A stretch of DNA of 64,000 bases from an uncultured Aquimarina sp. (GTDB lineage Bacteria; Bacteroidota; Bacteroidia; Flavobacteriales; Flavobacteriaceae): positions 9,594 to 73,593 of the forward strand of contig CANMKX010000021.1 in assembly GCA_947498595.1 (NCBI GenBank), written 5' to 3'. Below the pieces are notes generated by a model that did no database searches, had not been told where the DNA came from, and was given only the letters and a program-made list of their open reading frames with translations. Shown here one piece after another: positions 4,034 to 37,581 of this stretch (position 1 is the first letter of the stretch; each line of letters begins with the position of its first letter). Position numbers and translations under genes: made by a program.

Positions 4034-5857
4034 ATGATCGAATTAGCAGGCATTATCATATTAGGTATTCTAGCACAATGGGTCGCATGGAAACTTAAAA
4101 TCCCAGCGATATTACCATTAATTTTAATTGGTTTACTTGTAGGACCTTTCGCCGCAGGATTTCTTAGTGAAGACGGTTACAAATGGATTGAACCTATATG
4201 GAATGGTCATCATGGATTGTTTCCAGGAGAAAGCCTATTTCATTTTGTTTCCTTGGCTATTAGTATTATCCTTTTTGAAGGAGGGTTAACACTGAAACTC
4301 AATGAAATTAAAAATATTGAACCTGTAATTACGAAATTAATTACCGTAGGCTCTGCAATTACATTTTTTGGAGCTGCTATTGCAGTACATTATACTTTTG
4401 ACCTAGAATGGAATATTAGCTTCTTATTTTCTGGATTGATAATTGTTACTGGTCCAACAGTAATTGCCCCAATTTTACGAAATGTTCCACTTAAAAAAGA
4501 TATTTCGGCTATTCTTAAATGGGAAGGAATACTGATTGATCCTATTGGAGCTTTGGTAGCGGTATTGGTATTCGAATTTATAAGCGTTGGAGGAGGAGAA
4601 GATTTTACAAAAACTGCGTTTATAGAATTTGGTAAAATTTTACTTTTCGGTACTACCTTTGGTTTTTCATTCGCACATGGATTGCATTTTGCTATGGAAC
4701 GTAAATTGATTCCTCATTATCTATTAAACGTAGTTGCATTAACTTCTGTATTAGGTGTTTTTGTTTTATCAGATGCATTTGCTCATGAATCTGGTTTATT
4801 ATCTGTGGTTGTTATGGGAATGGTATTGGGGAACTCTAATTCAAAACATCTTAAAGAACTATTATACTTCAAAGAATCTTTAAGTACGTTATTAATATCA
4901 ATATTGTTTATATTACTTGCTGCTAATATTAACATTGCAGATTTAATGTTAATTTATAATTGGAAAACGCTGCTATTATTTAGTATTGTAATCTTTATAA
5001 TTCGTCCATTAGGAGTATTTATTTGTACTACAAATTCGACTTTAAAGTTTAATGAAAAACTCTTTATTAGTTGGGTGGGACCAAGAGGAATTGTAGCTGC
5101 TGGTATTGCATCTCTATTTGGATTAAAATTAGCAAAACATAATGTTGAAGGTGCAGAATATATCACTCCTTTGGTGTTTATGATTGTATTAGGAACGGTA
5201 TTATTAAATGCGACTACTGCACGTTTTTTTGCTAAAATAACAGGCGTTTTTCTTAAAAAATCTAACGGAATTTTAATTATTGGTGCTTCAAAATTTTCTA
5301 GAACACTAGCAGAATATCTTCTAAAAAATAACCGTCAAGTAGTTTTGATTGATACAAATAACGATAACATCAATCAAGCTAAAGAATTAGGGCTTGAAGC
5401 TCTTAGCATGGATATATATTCTGAAGAATTAAAATATGATATCGAATTGAATAATATAGGTTATTTAATGGCTTTTACAGGAAATTCTGAAATTAATAAA
5501 TATGCCATTGATAAGTTTAAAAAACAATTTGGAGAAAATGGTGCTTTTAGAATTCATTCTAAAGACGAAATAGAGAATGATAAAACCATGCAAAATGGAG
5601 CTCCTCATATTTTTTCTAAAACAAATGATTTTGTTTCATTTGATGAAATAGCTCGTAAAAACCCAAAAATTCACGAAATAAAAATTAAAAACAATTACCA
5701 AGAATTACTTTCTAAAATAAATACCAATCCTAATACTGCAGCAATATTTGTAAAGAAAGAAAGCGGGCGTATAGAAATTATTTCAGATGTAAATACAAAA
5801 ACTATCCAGCAAGAAAAAAATGCACATTTAATATACTTAGGAGAGCTGCTTAATTAA
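4034..5857 (+). CDS. CPA1/NhaP-type cation:proton antiporter with TrkA-N-like domain
   Basis: ILFEGG, VTGPTVI, EGILIDPIG, GPRGIVAA motifs; C-terminal IIGAS Rossmann-like domain. Confidence 0.88.
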   Translation: MIELAGIIILGILAQWVAWKLKIPAILPLILIGLLVGPFAAGFLSEDGYKWIEPIWNGHHGLFPGESLFHFVSLAISIILFEGGLTLKLNEIKNIEPVITKLITVGSAITFFGAAIAVHYTFDLEWNISFLFSGLIIVTGPTVIAPILRNVPLKKDISAILKWEGILIDPIGALVAVLVFEFISVGGGEDFTKTAFIEFGKILLFGTTFGFSFAHGLHFAMERKLIPHYLLNVVALTSVLGVFVLSDAFAHESGLLSVVVMGMVLGNSNSKHLKELLYFKESLSTLLISILFILLAANINIADLMLIYNWKTLLLFSIVIFIIRPLGVFICTTNSTLKFNEKLFISWVGPRGIVAAGIASLFGLKLAKHNVEGAEYITPLVFMIVLGTVLLNATTARFFAKITGVFLKKSNGILIIGASKFSRTLAEYLLKNNRQVVLIDTNNDNINQAKELGLEALSMDIYSEELKYDIELNNIGYLMAFTGNSEINKYAIDKFKKQFGENGAFRIHSKDEIENDKTMQNGAPHIFSKTNDFVSFDEIARKNPKIHEIKIKNNYQELLSKINTNPNTAAIFVKKESGRIEIISDVNTKTIQQEKNAHLIYLGELLN

Positions 5858-5933
5858 AAGAAGAATCCTAAAAACGAATTGTAAATTCAATATTTGTTTA
5901 TTAAAAAACAATGATGAATTTACAATTCGCTCT

Positions 5934-6638
5934 TTACATATATAAATTATTAATGACTGCTTTATAAGTTTGTCCTATAGGAATTTTATGTTCTTCTATA
6001 TGAATTCTATTCCCAACAATAGCTTCTATTTTATCCAATGCAACTACAAATGATTTATGCACTCTCAAGAAAGAAGTTGATGGAAGCAACGTTTCAAACG
6101 AAGATATTTTTTGATGACTTAAGATCATTTTATCTTCAAGAAACACTTTAGTATAGTTACCATAAGCTTCTATAAATAAAATGGTTTCAGAATGTATTTG
6201 ATGGTGTTTTTTATCTCCTTTAATAAAAAGTCGTTTACTGCTTTGAGTTACTTCACTTGCTACTGTTATTGAGCTTTGAGATTTTGAAGAAGTAGCTATT
6301 GCTTTATTTACTGCGGTTAAAAATCTCTCAAAACTAAAGGGTTTTAATAGGTAATCTACAACATTAAGATCAAAACCTTCTAAGGCAAATTCTTTATAAG
6401 CAGTCGTGACTATAACCTTTGGAGGATTAGATAGTGTTCTTAAAAAATCAAAGCCTTTTAATTTTGGCATATTCAGATCTAAGAACATAAAATCGACAGT
6501 ATTCGAATTTAAAAATTGTAGCGCTTCTAATGCATTATAACAATTTTTCTCTAGTGTAAGGTGTGGTAACATCGAACAGAATTCTTCTATTATTTCGTGC
6601 GCCAAAGGTTCATCATCAACAATCATATATCGTGTCAT
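5934..6638 (-). CDS. LytTR family response regulator
   Basis: VDDEPLA, FLDLNMP, YLLKP receiver motifs; FLRVHKSF LytTR motif. Confidence 0.92.
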   Translation of the reverse strand: MTRYMIVDDEPLAHEIIEEFCSMLPHLTLEKNCYNALEALQFLNSNTVDFMFLDLNMPKLKGFDFLRTLSNPPKVIVTTAYKEFALEGFDLNVVDYLLKPFSFERFLTAVNKAIATSSKSQSSITVASEVTQSSKRLFIKGDKKHHQIHSETILFIEAYGNYTKVFLEDKMILSHQKISSFETLLPSTSFLRVHKSFVVALDKIEAIVGNRIHIEEHKIPIGQTYKAVINNLYM

Positions 6639-7765
6639 ACTTCTTCTATTTTTAATAGTACTTCGTATTCATTATCTATTTTTGAAGTTATAATTTTATA
6701 AGAGTTTGGATACAATAAATTTAATCTTCTTACCAAATTACTCATTCCAATTCCTTCTTCAGGTGTTGTTGTTTCATCTAAGAAAGCATTTTTTATAGTA
6801 AAATTAATTTCACTTTTGGACACCTCTAAAAACATATGTACATATGCACTGTCAATCATTTTTTCAACCCCATGTTTAAATGCATTTTCAACCAAAATAA
6901 TAAACAATAATGGTGCAATTAAAACTTGATCGTCAACTACATTATAATCAAACTCGATCGAAACATCTTTTTTATATCTAATCTTATGCAAATCAATATA
7001 ATTTTCTAGATAATCTATTTCCTCTTTTATAGAAACACGTTCGTTCTTCCCTTCATAAATAGTATATCGCATCATCTCGGATAATTTTAAAATCACATCA
7101 GGTGCTTTATCTGATTTTTTAACAGTCAACGCGTATAAATTATTAAGAGTATTAAAAAAGAAATGAGGATTTATCTGTGCCTGAAGCATTTTTAATTCGG
7201 CTTGCGCTTTTGCATTTTTCAATGATTGCAACCATTTCCATTGCTCAAAACTCCATAAAGCAACACAAAATGGGATAGGAATTAAAAATAGGCCAATAGC
7301 TACTCCTTTTTTAAGCTCAACATAACTTTCAAAATCGCCTGTAAATAATCTTACATAAATAAAATATAAAGTAATAAGCGTATATAGGGTATAGATGTAT
7401 TTTCCATATTTCTTAAAGAACTTAGCTGTAAAAAAACTAACTACATAAAGCCAGAAAACAACTAATAAACTAATTGTAACTGGGTTGTCAGGTATTTTTA
7501 AACTGTTATCAATCAATATCATAACAATAAGCACGCTTATCAAACCTACTATTTTGTATACAATGCGCTTTTTTTCTTTAATAAAAGAAAACTTATAAAT
7601 AAGCAAAGAAATGAGCATCCACCAAAATAAGAAGATTAATACGACTTCGACAGGATCATCTTGTGGAATTAAAATGAACTGATAAAATTCTAGGCCTAAT
7701 ACAATAATAGAAACTATAAAAAAGCCAATTATAAATGCCTTATATTTTTTTAAAAACTGGATCAT
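6635..7765 (-). CDS. LytS/YehU-type membrane histidine kinase
   Basis: AQINPHFFFNTLN H-box, LVENAFKHG, GIGMSNL; N-terminal TM helices. Confidence 0.9.
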   Translation of the reverse strand: MIQFLKKYKAFIIGFFIVSIIVLGLEFYQFILIPQDDPVEVVLIFLFWWMLISLLIYKFSFIKEKKRIVYKIVGLISVLIVMILIDNSLKIPDNPVTISLLVVFWLYVVSFFTAKFFKKYGKYIYTLYTLITLYFIYVRLFTGDFESYVELKKGVAIGLFLIPIPFCVALWSFEQWKWLQSLKNAKAQAELKMLQAQINPHFFFNTLNNLYALTVKKSDKAPDVILKLSEMMRYTIYEGKNERVSIKEEIDYLENYIDLHKIRYKKDVSIEFDYNVVDDQVLIAPLLFIILVENAFKHGVEKMIDSAYVHMFLEVSKSEINFTIKNAFLDETTTPEEGIGMSNLVRRLNLLYPNSYKIITSKIDNEYEVLLKIEEV

Positions 7766-7808
7766 TTCACAAAATTACTAATGTTATCGACTGAGCCCAA
7801 TTAAATTG

Positions 7809-7856
7809 ATGAACCCTTTCTTTTTTGATACAAACATTGATCTTTTTATCACAAAC
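7809..7856. promoter_or_regulatory. Putative LytTR-binding direct repeats
   Basis: ATGAAC (7809), ACAAAC (7830), ACAAAC (7851) at exact 21-bp spacing between the kinase and the divergent ABC operon. Confidence 0.45.
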
Positions 7857-7971
7857 TCAAGTAGCGTTATTTTTTATAGCATATATCCCCAATAACTGTT
7901 GGTAGAACATTCTTATTATAACACATCAAGGTTTCAATTTAGATTCGTCTTCAAGTCTAAAAATAGAATTT

Positions 7972-8862
7972 ATGAATACTTTACAGATAGAAAACATTAC
8001 AAAGACATATCCCAATGGAGTTCATGCTCTTAGCAACGTTTCATTAAAAATAAACAATGGATTATTTGGTTTATTAGGTCCTAACGGAGCAGGAAAGTCA
8101 TCTTTGATGCGAACGATTGCATGTTTACAAGAACCTAGCAAAGGTGCCATTACCTTTAACGATGTGAATATTCTTCAAAATCCCCAAAAGCTTCGTTCAT
8201 CTTTGGGATATCTACCTCAGGAATTTGGCGTATACCCCAAAATATCAGCATATAAATTATTGGATCATTTAGCCATTTTAAAAGGAATCATTCACAAAAA
8301 AGATAGAAAAACACAAGTGGAAGCTTTATTGGCACAGACAAATTTATACCAACATAGGAAAAAATCAGTATACAATTTTTCAGGAGGAATGAAACAACGT
8401 TTCGGAATTGCACAGGCATTGTTAGGAAATCCGCAATTAATTATTGTTGATGAACCTACAGCTGGATTAGATCCCGAAGAGCGAAATCGCTTTTTAAATT
8501 TATTAAGCGAGATAGGGGAGAACGTAATTGTTATTTTATCTACACATATCGTAGACGATGTAAGTGATTTATGCAAGCAAATGGCAATATTATCCAAAGG
8601 AGAAATCATCGCACAAGGAAAACCATCTGCTTTAATAAAAAGTTTAGAAGGAAAAATTTGGACCAAAAAAATTTCTAAAAATAATTTGATCTCGCATAAA
8701 AAAGCTTTTAATATTATTTCAACAAAACTGGTTGCTGGCATGACACAAATTAGAGTGATTGCAAAAAACCAACCCGAAGCCAGTTTTAAAGCTATAGCTC
8801 CTAATCTAGAAGATTACTATTTCTCAAGTATTCAACAAGCATCAATCAACAAAACACTATAA
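7972..8862 (+). CDS. ABC transporter ATP-binding protein
   Basis: GPNGAGKS Walker A, FSGGMKQR signature, IVDEP Walker B. Confidence 0.95.
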   Translation: MNTLQIENITKTYPNGVHALSNVSLKINNGLFGLLGPNGAGKSSLMRTIACLQEPSKGAITFNDVNILQNPQKLRSSLGYLPQEFGVYPKISAYKLLDHLAILKGIIHKKDRKTQVEALLAQTNLYQHRKKSVYNFSGGMKQRFGIAQALLGNPQLIIVDEPTAGLDPEERNRFLNLLSEIGENVIVILSTHIVDDVSDLCKQMAILSKGEIIAQGKPSALIKSLEGKIWTKKISKNNLISHKKAFNIISTKLVAGMTQIRVIAKNQPEASFKAIAPNLEDYYFSSIQQASINKTL

Positions 8863-8865
8863 AAT

Positions 8866-11800
8866 ATGGTTAAGCAACTTATACAATTCGAATTTTATTA
8901 TCAATGTAGACAACGTGCTTTTCTACTTTTATCCTTACTATTTCTTATGCTTGGTTATTTTTGTGGCCAACAAGGATTTGCATTAGATCAAGTACATTTT
9001 AATTCTGAATATCAGATAATATTCTACACTAGTTTGTTTACTCTTGGAGCTGTTTTTATCATTATGTTTTTTGCAAATAATGGAGTTTTAAGAGATCGAC
9101 GATACCAGATGGAAGCTATAATGTATAGTACTTCCATGTCAAAAATCACCTTTTTCGGAATTCGTTTTCTAGGTGTTTTTATTAGTAGCTTATTAGCTTT
9201 TACACCATTCATTCTGGGCTATATTACAGGTATAGCACTTACAGATCTTGATCCTAGTCGCCTTTCTCACTTTTCTATATTTCCATATCTGAGAGCGTGG
9301 TTATTTTTTGTTGTTCCCAATATACTTTTGTGTTCATCGCTATTATTTGCTATTAGTTTATTAGCAAAAAATGCAATAGCAACTTATATAGGAGCCATAT
9401 TTATATACATGCTATACATGATTAGTTCGATGTTTTTAAACTCTCCTTTATTAGCACAATCTGTTCCAGCATCTCCAGAGACAATGAGTTTTGCAGCTAT
9501 AATGGATCCTTTAGGGATAGCAGCATTTTATGAACAAACACACTATTGGACGCCCGCGCAAAAAAATAGTGAACACTTAGCTTTTTCAGGTTTATTTATG
9601 TGGAATCGTATATTATGGATTTCAATTTCTTTATTAATAAATGGTATTAGCTATCAATTATTTTCATTTAGAAAATTGCAGCAAAAAACTAAAAAGAAAA
9701 TAGGAAAACTATCTAACACATCAACTGTTTCTAATTATAGGCCTATCAATCCTGTTATATCAATTAAATCCCAATGTATTGCCTTGTTTTCTCTTTTAAC
9801 AATAGAATTAAAATACGTTTTCAAGAATATTCCTTTTATAGCCATTATGTTAATGTGGCTGGTCATTATTACTACCGAATTTTATAACAATATTTATAAT
9901 GGAGGCGCCTATAATGATAGTATATATCCTTTTACGAATCTATTGATTGATTTAATGGTAACACCAATGACAACGCTTAGCATTATCTTGATAATTTTTT
10001 ACAGTGGAGAATTACTCTGGAAAGAGCGTAGTTTTAATTTTAATTATATCATTGACGCTACTCCTGTTTACAACAGCACTCTTTTTATATCCAAAAGTAT
10101 TGCATTGCTTTTACTTCCTCTAGTATTAATAACGATAGGAATATTCACTGCTATTTTCTTTCAATTATTAAATGGCTCAGTAACTATAGATTTATGGCAA
10201 TATATCGCGCTTTATTATTTTTATGGGCTTAAAATTTGTCTATATGCAATTATAGCAATTTGCATACAAAGTTTCGTTTCTAATAAATATTTAGGAATGG
10301 GAATTACAGGCTTGGTTATTTTCGGAAGTTTAATTTCGTATCGATTTGGTATAGAACATCCATTGCTCACTCTTGGAGCAATACCCAAACCAAATTATAC
10401 TGATATGAATGGTTTTTCAAAAGATTATATCCAGTATTCTCATTTAATCAGTTATTGGATAAGTGGGGCAGGAGTTGCTATTATTTTTGCATTTAAAACC
10501 TGGCAACGTGGAATTAATAAAAGCATTTTATATAAGTTAAAGCAAATACGATCTAACTGGAAACTTTGGCAATATATTAATTTAGCTAGTTGTGTCCTTG
10601 TTTTCATTGTCATGGGAAGTATGGTATTTTACAATACCAATATCGTTACAAACTATACTACAATAAAAAGTACTACGAATGATAGGGAAACATACGAACG
10701 AAAATTTAAAAAATATGAAACCTTAAAAAAACTAATTCCTTCAAAGATTACTACGAGAGTTGCATTATTTCCTAAAAAAGATACCTATACAATTGCAGCT
10801 AATTATACCTTGAAAAATAATAATGAAACTTCAATTGACTCCGTATTAATCACAGAGCGAATTCCTTTAAAAAATATCACTCTTGAAAATGCTGTTCTAA
10901 CGGAATATGATAGTATTCTCGGAACGTACTTATTTCGTTTTGAAGAAGCTGTAATTCCAAGTCAAGAAATCAATTTTAAATTTTCTATTCAGAAGGAATT
11001 AACTGGATATGAAACATCTAGAAATATAATCTCTAATGGTTCATATATAACACATCGTGATTTTGATCCCGTATTATCCTATCGAAAAAGTATCGAAATA
11101 CAAGATCCTTTTGAACGTAAAAAAAGAGGTTTACCAGAACTTATTAAAGCGGAAAATACAGATCAACATATAATGAATAAAGAATTTTCTATGGAAAAAG
11201 TTACCTTTGAAACAATTATCAGCACCGATATTGAGCAAACAGCAATAACCACAGGAAATTTAATTAGAAAATGGGAGCAGGGGAATCGTTCCTTTTATGA
11301 ATACAAAACTAAGCATCCAATACTACCGAGTATTGCTTATTTTTCAGCCAAATACAAAAAGAAAACAGCTAATTTTGAAGGAATTCGTATCGAACAATAT
11401 TATGATAAAAAGCATGATTATAATATTGCTACGATTGAAAAAAGCACACAACAAGCTTTAGAATATTGCATTCAAAACTTTGGGAAATATCATGATGATC
11501 ATATACGAATTGCTGAAATTCCAGCGCATTGGCAATTTGGAGGTTTTGCACACCCTGGAGTCATCAGTATGGTAGAAGATCGTTTGTATTTAACTGATTT
11601 AAGTAATGATCCGGCGTTTAATCTAGTCGCTAAGCGTACGATTCATGAGGTAGCACATCAATGGTGGGGACATATTTTATCGGCAAAACCTATTGCTGGT
11701 GGATCTTTATTAGTTGAAGGTTTTGCTAAATATACCGAAGGAGTTGTAATGGAAAAACATTATGGAAAAGGTGCATTATGGCAGTTAAGTCAGACAGCGA

Positions 11801-17310: not shown

Positions 17311-17412
17311 TTTAGTTTATAAATTTGGTTAAGTCAAAGTTCCATAAATGTAGTAAATTTTAACAAGTAAGTATTTGTGGAATTCCGTAATTAATTTAAA
17401 AATAAAGAGAAT

Positions 17413-17584
17413 AATCCCATTCCATACACATTTTGCCTCCACTCCTCTGCCCTTTCAGCAAAAAGAGTATTCCATTACCTTTTTAGAGAAACTTTTCGAG
17501 AAGAAAAAAATCAAAGAAGATTTGTCTTTGGTAAAAGCTTTTACCCAAGCAAAGTTACATAACGCAGAACATTATAGTACAAAT
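17413..17584. repeat. Inter-module repeat R1
   Basis: ATTCCATACAC stem, A-rich tract GAAGATTTGTCTTTGG, palindrome GGTAAAAGCTTTTACC (17530-17545), then AAGTTACATAA-9bp-TTATAGTACAA, whose right arm is identical to the dif arm. Confidence 0.85.
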
Positions 17585-19372: not shown

Positions 19373-19499
19373 ATCATTTCATACACATTATATTCCCCTC
19401 CTTTTCTCGGGCCGTATAAAAGTATTTCATTAAAAATAAAGAGATAAACTTTGCTTTACCCAAGCAAAGTGACATAACCGCAAGTACATTATAGTACAT
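19373..19499. repeat. Inter-module repeat R2 (shortened, diverged)
   Basis: ATTTCATACACATT stem; hairpin ACTTTGCTT-TACCC-AAGCAAAGT (19448-19470); AAGTGACATAA-11bp-TTATAGTACAT. Confidence 0.7.
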
Positions 19500-19879: not shown

Positions 19880-19914
19880 AAAAGCTCAAATGTTTATAGA
19901 ACATTTGAGCTTTT
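19880..19914 (-). terminator. Terminator of the peptide-protease operon
   Basis: 15-bp perfect inverted repeat AAAAGCTCAAATGTT-N5-AACATTTGAGCTTTT. Confidence 0.75.
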
Positions 19915-19934
19915 AAAATATTAATAATGCCTTA

Positions 19935-20663
19935 CTACCAATTAGCTACTTCATTAATAAAACTTTCATATAAATCAGAAGATTTATTAGGGCAACCACC
20001 ATAATTATGAATTCCGATAGCAACGGCTCTATTCTTTAATAATGCTCCTCCACTTTGACCACCAAAAGTGTCCGCATCATAGTAAAATCTTCCAGACTTC
20101 TTAATCAAGTTATCTGTCATTCTATATTGAAAAAGTCCATTGTCTCTATCCGCAGGATAGCCACAAATCTCTCCATAATTAGAATCTTCTATTGATGGTG
20201 TTATGAATTCATTGAACGTTACTGGTTTATTAAGTTTAATAGCTCCCATATCGTAGCGAGTAGATTTATTATCTATCCAACCTTTAGTAGCTGCTACACT
20301 TATGGCTTTATATCGTCCATAAGGTTCTGACAATCCAGATTTGGCTGGAATAACTATTATGCTTTCCTTCCATCCCCCTGTGCTATGACTAAAAACACAG
20401 TGTCCTGCAGTATATAATTTATCTCCTGAAACTAACCAACCAGAGCCAACATATGTTCTACCATTAGGAGCTTTCATATATAATTTACAAATAGCTATAT
20501 ATGGTAATTGATTTGTTGAAACCACCTTTTGTCGTTCATCAATTCCGCAAATCGATTCAGGAGTGAGTTCATTTTCTAATTCAATCCAGTTTTCTCTTGT
20601 GATTTCAGATTCGTTTATTTTATTTTTGTTTCCACTTATTTTATGAAAGATTAGTTTTTCCAT
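19935..20663 (-). CDS. V8-like glutamyl endopeptidase (trypsin fold) without signal peptide
   Basis: Triad motifs TAGHC, RYDMG, GGQSGG; Glu-specificity residues in DTFG and GIHN; probable activation site PE/SICG. Confidence 0.85.
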   Translation of the reverse strand: MEKLIFHKISGNKNKINESEITRENWIELENELTPESICGIDERQKVVSTNQLPYIAICKLYMKAPNGRTYVGSGWLVSGDKLYTAGHCVFSHSTGGWKESIIVIPAKSGLSEPYGRYKAISVAATKGWIDNKSTRYDMGAIKLNKPVTFNEFITPSIEDSNYGEICGYPADRDNGLFQYRMTDNLIKKSGRFYYDADTFGGQSGGALLKNRAVAIGIHNYGGCPNKSSDLYESFINEVANW

Positions 20664-20693
20664 TCTATAAAAATTTAGATTTATTTAGAATAT

Positions 20694-20924
20694 CTATGCG
20701 CATAAAGAGTCAAGGGAACTAATAAGTAACTTCAATGCATCTCTCCATTTTTTTGGAATTAGAGGAATATTTGCTATTAGCCTAACAATACTTCCAATTT
20801 TATTCCATATCTGGCATATTTTAGAAGTTATATCTAGTGATTCTTGGTTTAAATCTGATTCTAATTGATTTAAATTTAAACTCTCAATTTCTTTGTTTAC
20901 CGATTCAAATGTTAATTCTGACAT
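20694..20924 (-). CDS. 76-aa peptide with acidic leader and cationic amphipathic core (two Cys)
   Basis: ATG ORF 30 bp upstream of the protease gene; composition read directly from the translation. Confidence 0.75.
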   Translation of the reverse strand: MSELTFESVNKEIESLNLNQLESDLNQESLDITSKICQIWNKIGSIVRLIANIPLIPKKWRDALKLLISSLDSLCA

Positions 20925-21010
20925 ATCTTTTAATTTTAAATTAATATTAAAACTAAAGTATAAATATCTGTATATTAGAAAAATACCCGTTAAAAGGTAT
21001 ATTTAGATTT

Positions 21011-21231
21011 AATCCCATTCCATACACATTACCACTTCTCTCCTATCGTCGCTTCGGGCAAAGCGTATTCCATTACATTTTTAAAGAAACATTTGAGAAG
21101 AAAAAAATAAAAGAAAATTTGTCTTTGGGAAAATCCAACGCACCATCTCACGCATATATATAAAAGTCTACTAGACTTTTATATATATGCTGTACCAAAG
21201 CAAAGTTACATAACGTTTTATTATAATTATA
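21011..21231. repeat. Inter-module repeat R3 (most complete copy)
   Basis: Stem, A-rich tract, perfect 19-bp inverted repeat GCATATATATAAAAGTCTA-C-TAGACTTTTATATATATGC (21152-21190), then AAGTTACATAA-7bp-TTATAATTATA. Confidence 0.88.
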
Positions 21232-21850: not shown

Positions 21851-21885
21851 TAGAAGTCAATTTCATACATTCAACAACTATTCCT

Positions 21886-22165
21886 ATTCCATACGCATTT
21901 TGCCTCCACTTCTTCTGCCCTTTCTGCAAAAAGAGTATTTACTCACTCTTCATTTATTTGATAAATAGGTATTCGTGAACCCTGATGGGTTTCATTAGCT
22001 TTTTAAAGAAACTTCAGGGAAAGGAAAAAATCTAAAAAGAATGTTATATTGTGTAAAATATCCTACAATAATCTTTTTATCTTGATCCTTCGATAAATTC
22101 AGGGTAAATGACAAAAGAACAAAAAACTTGTACTGAGCTTGCCGAAATATCAAAGCTGCATAACA
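21886..22165. repeat. Inter-module repeat R4 (interrupted)
   Basis: 21886-21940 is nearly identical to the start of R1; A-rich block resumes near 22005; ends CAAAGCTGCATAAC (cf. CAAAGTTACATAAC). Confidence 0.7.
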
Positions 22166-32413: not shown

Positions 32414-32630
32414 CCATTGCATACACATTTCCACTTCACTCCTATCGACGCTTCGAGCAATGCGTATTCCATTATAGTAGTAGAAGAAACTTTTTAGAAA
32501 GAAAAAAAGAAGATTTGTCTTTGGGAAAATCCAACGTATCACTTAGTTTCTATATATAAAAGTCTACTATACTTTTATATATATTTGTACCAAAGCAAAA
32601 TAGCATAGCACAAAACATTGTTGCGCATTC
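32414..32630. repeat. Inter-module repeat R5
   Basis: Highly similar to R3 (CCTATCGACGCTTCGAGC, GAAGATTTGTCTTTGGGAAAATCCAACG); 13-bp-arm palindrome at 32551-32583; degenerate terminal site. Confidence 0.85.
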
Positions 32631-37435: not shown

Positions 37436-37581
37436 AATTCACACATTCTACTTCTCTCCTACCGTCACTTCGAGCAAAGCATATTACATTATAGTTGCAA
37501 AGAAACTTTTTAAAAAGAAAAAAAATAAAAGAAGATTTGTCTTTGGGAAAGCACTACGCACCACCTCATTCCTATATATAA
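37436..37581. repeat. Inter-module repeat R6 (truncated in the palindrome)
   Basis: CTTCTCTCCTACCGTCACTTCGAGCAAAGC, GAAGATTTGTCTTTGGGAAA, TATATATAAA, then divergence. Confidence 0.8.

Follow-up and report, generated by a model that had tools for sequence, protein, structure and literature searches.

We examined a two-gene locus in a 64,000-nucleotide stretch of DNA from an uncultured Aquimarina sp. (Flavobacteriaceae; GenBank assembly GCA_947498595.1, contig CANMKX010000021.1, positions 9,594 to 73,593), here referred to as the window, in which a gene for a small helical protein of 76 residues (the peptide; 20694..20924, minus strand) lies 30 nt upstream of a gene for a 242-residue serine protease of the V8 or glutamyl-endopeptidase-like type (peptidase family S1B; 19935..20663, also minus strand). 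Both genes and the gap between them appear in the list of open reading frames (ORFs) exactly where a preliminary description of this DNA had placed them. That description proposed that the protease removes an acidic leader from the peptide to release a membrane-active core, and a reading of this kind, in which the pair is a protease-gated pro-effector cassette, is the one that we favour, with a probability of about 0.4. The claim that the pair has a terminator of its own is borne out by an intrinsic terminator hairpin just past the stop codon of the protease (19880..19914, minus strand), predicted by folding to have a 15-bp stem (dG -18.3 kcal/mol, z -4.83, with none of 200 shuffled sequences equally stable) followed by a U run, and it closes the two-gene unit. 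At the other end, the peptide gene is preceded by a conserved 5' region (20925..21002, minus strand) with a palindrome and a Bacteroidota-type -7-like box. The pair is organised like an operon: both genes are on one strand with a short gap between them, a single conserved promoter region precedes them and a single terminator follows.

The same arrangement, with the peptide gene directly followed by the protease gene on the same strand and gaps of 12-31 nt, is found in seven independent loci: the window, Flavivirga spongiicola (L001), L007, Aquimarina gracilis (L008), Flagellimonas myxillae (L015), L016 and L093. These span at least five genera, the remaining neighbours vary by locus, and no conserved third gene was seen across the linked loci. 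A possible eighth pair is indicated solely by contigs of identical length. Divergence of the peptides is correlated with that of the proteases in the seven linked pairs (Mantel r 0.91, exact p 39/5040), and in the protease tree the seven linked proteases form one clade (support 88/88) together with the protease of L020, which has no peptide. Because the linked proteases form one clade, the association of the peptide with an S1 protease has a single origin, after which it was retained. The linkage is asymmetric, in that seven of the eight proteases of the clade are accompanied by the peptide whereas the peptide is often found alone.

About 85 nt upstream of the peptide gene are kept in nine of ten loci across genera, with or without the protease, and this conservation exceeds that at synonymous sites; five of the six loci with a solitary peptide are in the upstream alignment and all five keep the region, the sixth (G233) lying outside that alignment. 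The palindrome within it, ATACC(C/T)-TTTAA(T/C)-GGGTAT (20983-21002, minus strand), is located about 70 nt upstream of the peptide ATG and may be an operator or a 5'-leader structure. Its candidacy as a regulon motif was rejected, since it occurs only once in the window's own genome.

The protease matches the Pfam Trypsin family (E 3e-11), and its closest solved structure is the Bacillus intermedius glutamyl endopeptidase 1p3c (profile E 1.6e-28; Foldseek E 5.5e-15 with TM-scores of 0.72-0.80), with V8 and Esp ranking next. The AlphaFold2 model has a predicted local distance difference test score (pLDDT) of 90. In an alignment of 33 sequences the catalytic residues H88, D138 and S204 (codons 20400-20402, 20250-20252 and 20052-20054, minus strand) are invariant, D198 and H219 likewise, and T199 shows at least 90% conservation. 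The S1-pocket residues Thr190 and His213 have their equivalents in T199 and H219, which lie in the motifs DTFGGQSG and GIHNYGG, to be compared with DTFSGNSGS and GVHNAG in 1p3c. Fold and triad thus assign the protein, by homology, to family S1B and its glutamyl endopeptidase type, and the S1 pocket is consistent with a preference for Glu; the V8-like character and specificity motifs named in the preliminary description are accordingly present, with the specificity itself expected by homology. In the alignment with 1p3c, I38-C39-G40 matches the start of the mature enzyme (VIGDDGR) and lies two residues past a Glu36 that is at least 90% conserved, and for this reason a pro-segment of about 36 residues is likely (residues 1-36, 20556..20663, minus strand, ending at Glu36 and followed by S-I-C-G), which makes the boundary between PE and SICG that had been suggested earlier plausible. 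In the model, residues 20-40 are of low confidence, whereas the strand at residues 4-8 is confident. According to Meijers 2004 (cited via PMC11970125), the S1 pocket of this enzyme family is formed when the N-terminus is freed. On plasmids and phages, only distant matches to the protease were found (26-38% identity).

The charge distribution of the peptide is uneven, and a recount of its residues agreed with the earlier one in every particular. Glu occurs only at positions 3, 7, 12, 14, 22 and 28, all within the acidic part (residues 1-28; 20841-20924, minus strand). The cationic two-helix part (residues 29-76; 20697-20840, minus strand) is bracketed by Cys37 and Cys75 and contains a PLIP sequence at 54-57; from residue 32 to 76 there are no Glu, seven Lys or Arg (35, 42, 48, 58, 59, 61 and 65) and two Asp (62 and 72). 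The AlphaFold2 model (pLDDT 88, predicted TM-score 0.70) has helices at 6-15, 18-25, 32-51 and 58-75 and no strand. The two amphipathic helices that had been proposed for the region 32-76 correspond to the last two of these, with hydrophobic moments of 0.56 and 0.54, and are moderately amphipathic. On direct reading of the N-termini, no signal peptide is visible in either the peptide or the protease. There are 21 close homologues of the peptide (60-95% identity), all from Flavobacteriaceae, and M1, L4, T5, F6, E7, V9, N10, E12, I13, E14, C37 and W40 are invariant among the 22 sequences, none of which has a GG motif. Ten intact copies compared codon by codon contain no frameshifts and have ratios of nonsynonymous to synonymous substitution (dN/dS) of 0.05-0.1 over synonymous divergences (dS) ranging from 0.26 to saturation, and the peptide is therefore a real gene under strong purifying selection. 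The peptide has zero matches on plasmids or phages, and searches with its sequence profile against the Protein Data Bank (PDB) returned nothing below E 0.1, while fold searches of its model against PDB and BFVD returned nothing at E<=0.001.

Two further observations concern the pair directly. The two ORFs (19935-20924, minus strand) are in one reading frame with starts 261 nt apart, separated by a TAG stop and one in-frame TAA, and the N-termini of their products look alike (MSELTFESV in the peptide and MEKLIFHKI in the protease, where LIFHK is a confidently predicted beta-strand with pLDDT 94). As to individual Glu residues, E28 was considered as a cleavage site on the grounds of differential conservation, being kept in all seven linked peptides and lost in two of five solitary ones, and was set aside as the difference is not significant (Fisher p about 0.15).

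A profile search of 1.84 billion representatives (E<=0.001) recovered at least 216 clusters at 50% identity, most of them proteins of 70-125 residues that span the full profile. Conservation in this wider family was assessed in a 46-sequence alignment (A3), the metagenome scan was made with alignment A4, and gene neighbourhoods were sampled at about 20 loci out of the 216 clusters. In A3, no variation is seen at P57 and C75, and F6, C37, W60 and D72 reach at least 90% conservation. The division into an acidic N-terminal and a cationic C-terminal part that had been described for the window peptide extends to the whole family, with a mean net charge of -4 for the N-terminal part and a positive C-terminal part in all 46 members. 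Neither the peptide nor any of the 46 family members matched a family in Pfam, NCBIfam, PADLOC or PHROGs, and the wide profile searched against 401 Bacteroidota genomes matched solely the window's own genome.

Several members of the wider family are joined to, or encoded beside, proteases of other kinds. One peptide unit is fused to the C-terminus of a TPR-CHAT protein (P0277), a Peptidase_S8 domain is followed by four to five tandem units (P0177), and in P0191 two units lie behind an S8/S53-like segment recognised by eye (GGTSAVAP). Distant members adjoin Astacin and Peptidase_C14 genes, lie near a Nal1/trypsin-like protease with four cell-wall hydrolases, or adjoin a PG_binding_1-GH19 protein. 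These ties to four or five unrelated catalytic classes fit a substrate better than a class-specific inhibitor. What looked by eye like S8 remnants on the downstream side of the peptide in L123-L125 gained no confirmation from phmmer or Pfam and is not counted. We also observed, in soil metagenome sequence (L110, 1168-4866, and L111), a distant peptide gene located between a divergently transcribed patatin-like phospholipase gene and a gene for a 417-residue protein with a weak Peptidase_C39_2-like match (E 7.5e-4, under the Pfam cut-off), possibly another protease-effector arrangement. Other members of the family have Tat-like signals or are whole-unit tandem duplications (P0166, P0173, P0188 and L109 804-1229; P0208, P0245, P0247, P0271, P0289 and P0233).

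In the mechanism that we favour, the protease would be synthesised as a cytoplasmic V8-type zymogen, and removal of its pro-segment, about 36 residues long, after Glu36 would yield a Glu-directed endopeptidase. Its dedicated substrate would be the 76-residue protein encoded just upstream, cut in the acidic N-terminal third or in the linker, with E22 and E28 as candidate sites. Cleavage would free the cationic, Cys-bracketed amphipathic helical hairpin, which might then damage the cell membrane, such that the cassette could act as a suicide, abortive-infection or addiction module within an array of defence and toxin-antitoxin cassettes. We prefer this pro-effector reading because its genetic logic is that of Pepco and EACC1 and because the peptide family is tied to unrelated protease classes. 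It is a tentative and somewhat doubtful further step to place the 76-residue protein in a phylum-spanning and so far uncatalogued family of helical pro-toxins, in which the hairpin has a Cys at either end and which at least four protease classes (S1B, S8, CHAT/C14, and C39-like or astacin) would have captured independently; members are found also beside endolysin-like cell-wall hydrolases.

The precedents are instructive in both their likenesses and their differences. Small proteins that co-occur with proteases were described by Kaur et al. 2020 (PMC7159879), in which EACC1 and its caspase constitute 'System 4', and Pepco and EACC1, the small upstream partners of proteases, were reported to form pores once a single cut has been made in them (Evans et al. 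2025, PMC12642450). The pattern associated with a protease-effector defence module in the latter study, an effector encoded beside a protease with which it co-evolves, is seen at the seven linked loci, alongside the six in which the peptide is solitary; those modules couple the protease to a sensor (STAND, or the target of a diversity-generating retroelement, DGR), and no such coupling is found here. As in the EACC1-caspase system, the gene directly 5' of the protease gene encodes a small protein without enzymatic function, with a proposed N-terminal autoinhibitory part and a C-terminal toxic part released by one cut. However, the EACC1 profile (Pfam PF19953) has no match at E<=1 among the 46 family members, EACC1 is an alpha+beta protein with a Gly-rich transmembrane helix whereas the peptide is all-helical in its model with a maximum Kyte-Doolittle 19-residue window of 1.05, and the EACC1 caspase is fused to Avs, DGR or other sensor domains whereas the protease here is a stand-alone S1B zymogen. 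Pepco (Trypco1/Trypco2) shares with this pair a trypsin-fold protease, a small upstream partner and a defence context, but is a beta-barrel-forming protein of about 117 residues, in contrast to the predicted all-helical peptide, which has no Pfam Trypco match and no PADLOC match, and its protease is built into a STAND sensor protein. Bacterial gasdermin operons similarly combine a latent membrane effector with interchangeable protease classes (caspase-like, trypsin-like and subtilase), as in the mechanism proposed above, but gasdermins are beta-rich proteins of about 250 residues with a short C-terminal inhibitory peptide, and the peptide has no sequence or fold similarity to them. On these profile and fold comparisons the peptide is not EACC1, Pepco or a gasdermin. 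The protease, for its part, has in common with the S1B glutamyl endopeptidases (1p3c, Staphylococcus aureus V8/SspA and S. epidermidis Esp) the fold, the triad, S1 residues of the Thr190/His213 type and an N-terminal pro-segment; those enzymes carry signal peptides, are secreted and act extracellularly, whereas the window protease has no signal peptide and is about 26% identical, and its Glu specificity is presumed.

A considerable number of observations weigh against a protease-activated toxin. The peptide is solitary in 6 of the 13 Flavobacteriaceae loci (Aquimarina sp. Aq78, L004, Winogradskyella (L095), L096, L098 and G233) and in most of the distant ones. No decayed protease was detected beside the solitary peptides by tblastn, a close protease homologue is missing altogether from two of the six solitary-peptide genomes, and the solitary copies are as constrained as the linked ones, which argues that the peptide has a function independent of the protease. 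Among 401 genomes of the family, the peptide is present in three and the protease in four, and both solely in the window's own genome; about half of the sampled distant loci have no protease, patatin or cell-wall-hydrolase neighbour, and protease relatives of 68-74% identity have very different neighbours and no peptide. The predicted fold of the peptide is compact and soluble-looking, and none of its segments is hydrophobic enough for a transmembrane helix. The N-terminal 'leader' is the best-conserved segment, with the first 14 residues nearly invariant, and such conservation together with the strong constraint is not typical of a leader that is discarded or of a peptide that lyses cells non-specifically. 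A core free of Glu, as had been noted, is a property of the window peptide, but two linked homologues have a Glu in this region, E38 in Aquimarina gracilis and E69 in Flagellimonas myxillae. A role outside the cytoplasm is hinted at by the two conserved Cys residues and by the few relatives that have Tat-like signals. Finally, the protease consists of a pro-segment and a catalytic domain only, with no visible secretion domain and no sensor domain that would point to a trigger. The interpretation advanced in the preliminary description therefore survives in part: the co-diverging operon, the ties of the family to proteases, the charge split and the Pepco and EACC1 precedents speak for it, and the solitary constrained peptides, conserved leader, core Glu residues, lack of a transmembrane-like segment and lack of a sensor speak against it.

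Three other explanations have to be set beside the protease-gated one. In one, which we regard as unlikely, the pair is composed of a toxin and its neutraliser, the cytoplasmic protease being harmful and the 76-residue protein its inhibitor, in the role of antitoxin, immunity protein or trans-acting pro-domain; its Glu-rich N-terminus would then serve as a pseudo-substrate, and the solitary copies would be orphan neutralisers. The asymmetry of the linkage, with nearly all proteases of the clade accompanied and a peptide that is often alone yet still under selection, is as seen with antitoxins and immunity genes, and the small gene comes first behind a promoter region with a unique palindrome, as in an autoregulated toxin-antitoxin (TA) operon, within a cassette array beside ParDE. 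It is the asymmetry together with the palindrome that keeps this model alive. Staphostatin-staphopain and type II TA operons also have a small cytoplasmic protein co-transcribed with a potentially harmful one, and orphan small partners, but staphostatins are beta-barrel inhibitors of cysteine proteases encoded downstream, whereas the peptide is predicted to be helical and is encoded upstream of a serine protease, and although the gene order and promoter palindrome are TA-like, neither the DNA-binding fold of a type II antitoxin nor a known toxin family is found here. Several points count against neutralisation: one inhibitor fold is unlikely to serve S1, S8, CHAT/C14, astacin and C39-like peptidases; an S8 protease is followed in the same chain by tandem units; the searches matched the peptide to no known fold of an inhibitor or a DNA-binding protein; and the protease relatives with 68-74% identity do without any such partner.

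A second explanation, that the two genes are functionally independent neighbours in one mobile cassette, with the peptide acting for example as a small regulatory or envelope-associated protein and the protease on other substrates, seems to us quite unlikely. It accommodates the prevalence of solitary members in the wider family, the promoter region and level of constraint kept by solitary Flavobacteriaceae copies, the activity of the protease family in other operons that lack the peptide, and the single origin of the link to an S1 protease; it does not readily account for an adjacency of 12-31 nt that is kept across saturated synonymous divergence and changing neighbourhoods, for the co-divergence of the two genes, or for the separate fusions and adjacencies of the family to other proteases, which are unlikely by chance. 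We consider it improbable that the peptide is the precursor of an unmodified bacteriocin, matured by the protease, released by an unlinked exporter or by lysis, and closed by a disulfide outside the cell. Like double-glycine class II bacteriocins, the peptide has an acidic helical N-terminus and a cationic amphipathic C-terminal hairpin that a disulfide could close, with the Cys residues at both ends conserved across the wider family, and some relatives have Tat-like signals or a GG motif in the linker, one of them adjoining the C39_2-like peptidase. However, those bacteriocins have a GG site, a C39-ABC exporter and an immunity gene, whereas members of this clade have neither a signal peptide nor a GG site, the cassette and about 8 kb around it encode no immunity gene and no peptidase-type (PCAT) ATP-binding cassette (ABC) exporter, and the partner protease is cytoplasmic and of a different family. 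The sole nearby ABC ATPase is about 8 kb off and paired with an M1-peptidase-domain protein. Sequence conservation is moreover far beyond that usual for bacteriocins, and the bacteriocin variant offered in the preliminary description is weakened by the missing GG site, exporter and immunity gene.

Relatives of the protease with 52-74% identity occur in several phyla without the peptide, immediately upstream of differing partners that include S8 subtilases, a Trypsin_2-Endonuclease_1 protein and a Trypsin_2-EEP protein. Small S1B proteases are positioned directly upstream of a Trypsin_2-Endonuclease_1 protein in a planctomycetote (L026, 4968-7934), a Trypsin_2-EEP nuclease in a cyanobacterium (L021, 2216-5187), a metallophosphoesterase and an IetS-like subtilase (L018, 4926-9516) and a lone S8 subtilase (L020, 5001-7306). 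In view of these varied partners, the small S1 zymogen looks like a reusable 'helper protease' module of multi-protease conflict or effector operons. In Zobellia and Pseudozobellia (L009-L014 and L017, about 4971-9570 in each locus) there is a conserved three-gene operon encoding an S1B zymogen of 251 residues, an endolysin-like PG_binding_1-Amidase_2 protein of 338 residues and a Trypsin_2 and Peptidase_S8 protein of about 915 residues. No signal peptide is visible on its small protease or amidase protein, and PADLOC does not recognise the operon, which may be a lysis module based on a protease cascade.

The surroundings of the pair are composed of other cassettes. It is flanked by a gene for a TrlF/Ppl-like ATPase, by ParDE and by copies of an intergenic repeat of about 150 nt, with a gene for a 423-residue protein and the ebo operon also among the neighbours. 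A strong copy of the repeat, R3 (21003..21156, plus strand; nhmmer E 9e-43), forms the boundary on the peptide side; on the protease side, R2 (19375..19437, plus strand) is only a weak partial copy (nhmmer E 8e-4, model positions 17-81 only). Further copies in the window are at 17406-17559, 21871-22042, 32414-32539 and 37441-37571, and the repeat sets apart single cassettes (the Ppl/TrlF-like ATPase, the 423-residue protein, the peptide-protease pair and ParDE) in an array located between the ebo operon and a dif-like region. Other genera have members of this repeat family too, frequently right in front of the peptide gene, with copies in L004 (5799-5930), L093 (3891-3988), L007 (4772-4924 and 37-152) and L015 (3781-3867); those in L004 and L093 lie just upstream of that gene. 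These repeat-separated cassettes look like an integron-like or Xer-like cassette array. An Rfam search of 12-24 kb of the window gave no match, the repeat included, and a same-genus relative has no peptide, no protease and no adjacent ebo gene.

Death effectors gated by proteolysis have recently been shown to be a dominant logic in bacterial immunity, and a handful of effector families are known. If the 76-residue proteins are indeed a family of pro-toxins, gasdermin, Pepco and EACC1 would be joined by one more protease-gated effector of cell death or lysis; in the window, a cytoplasmic V8-type zymogen without a sensor would drive it, and the switch would be the activation of the zymogen itself. 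A pair that works in this way would add an all-helical effector family missing from every reference library tested, in a minimal system with a stand-alone V8-like zymogen in place of a sensor-fused protease, and raises the question of what activates the zymogen. If the small protein is an inhibitor instead, it would represent a new cytoplasmic inhibitor family for glutamyl endopeptidases.

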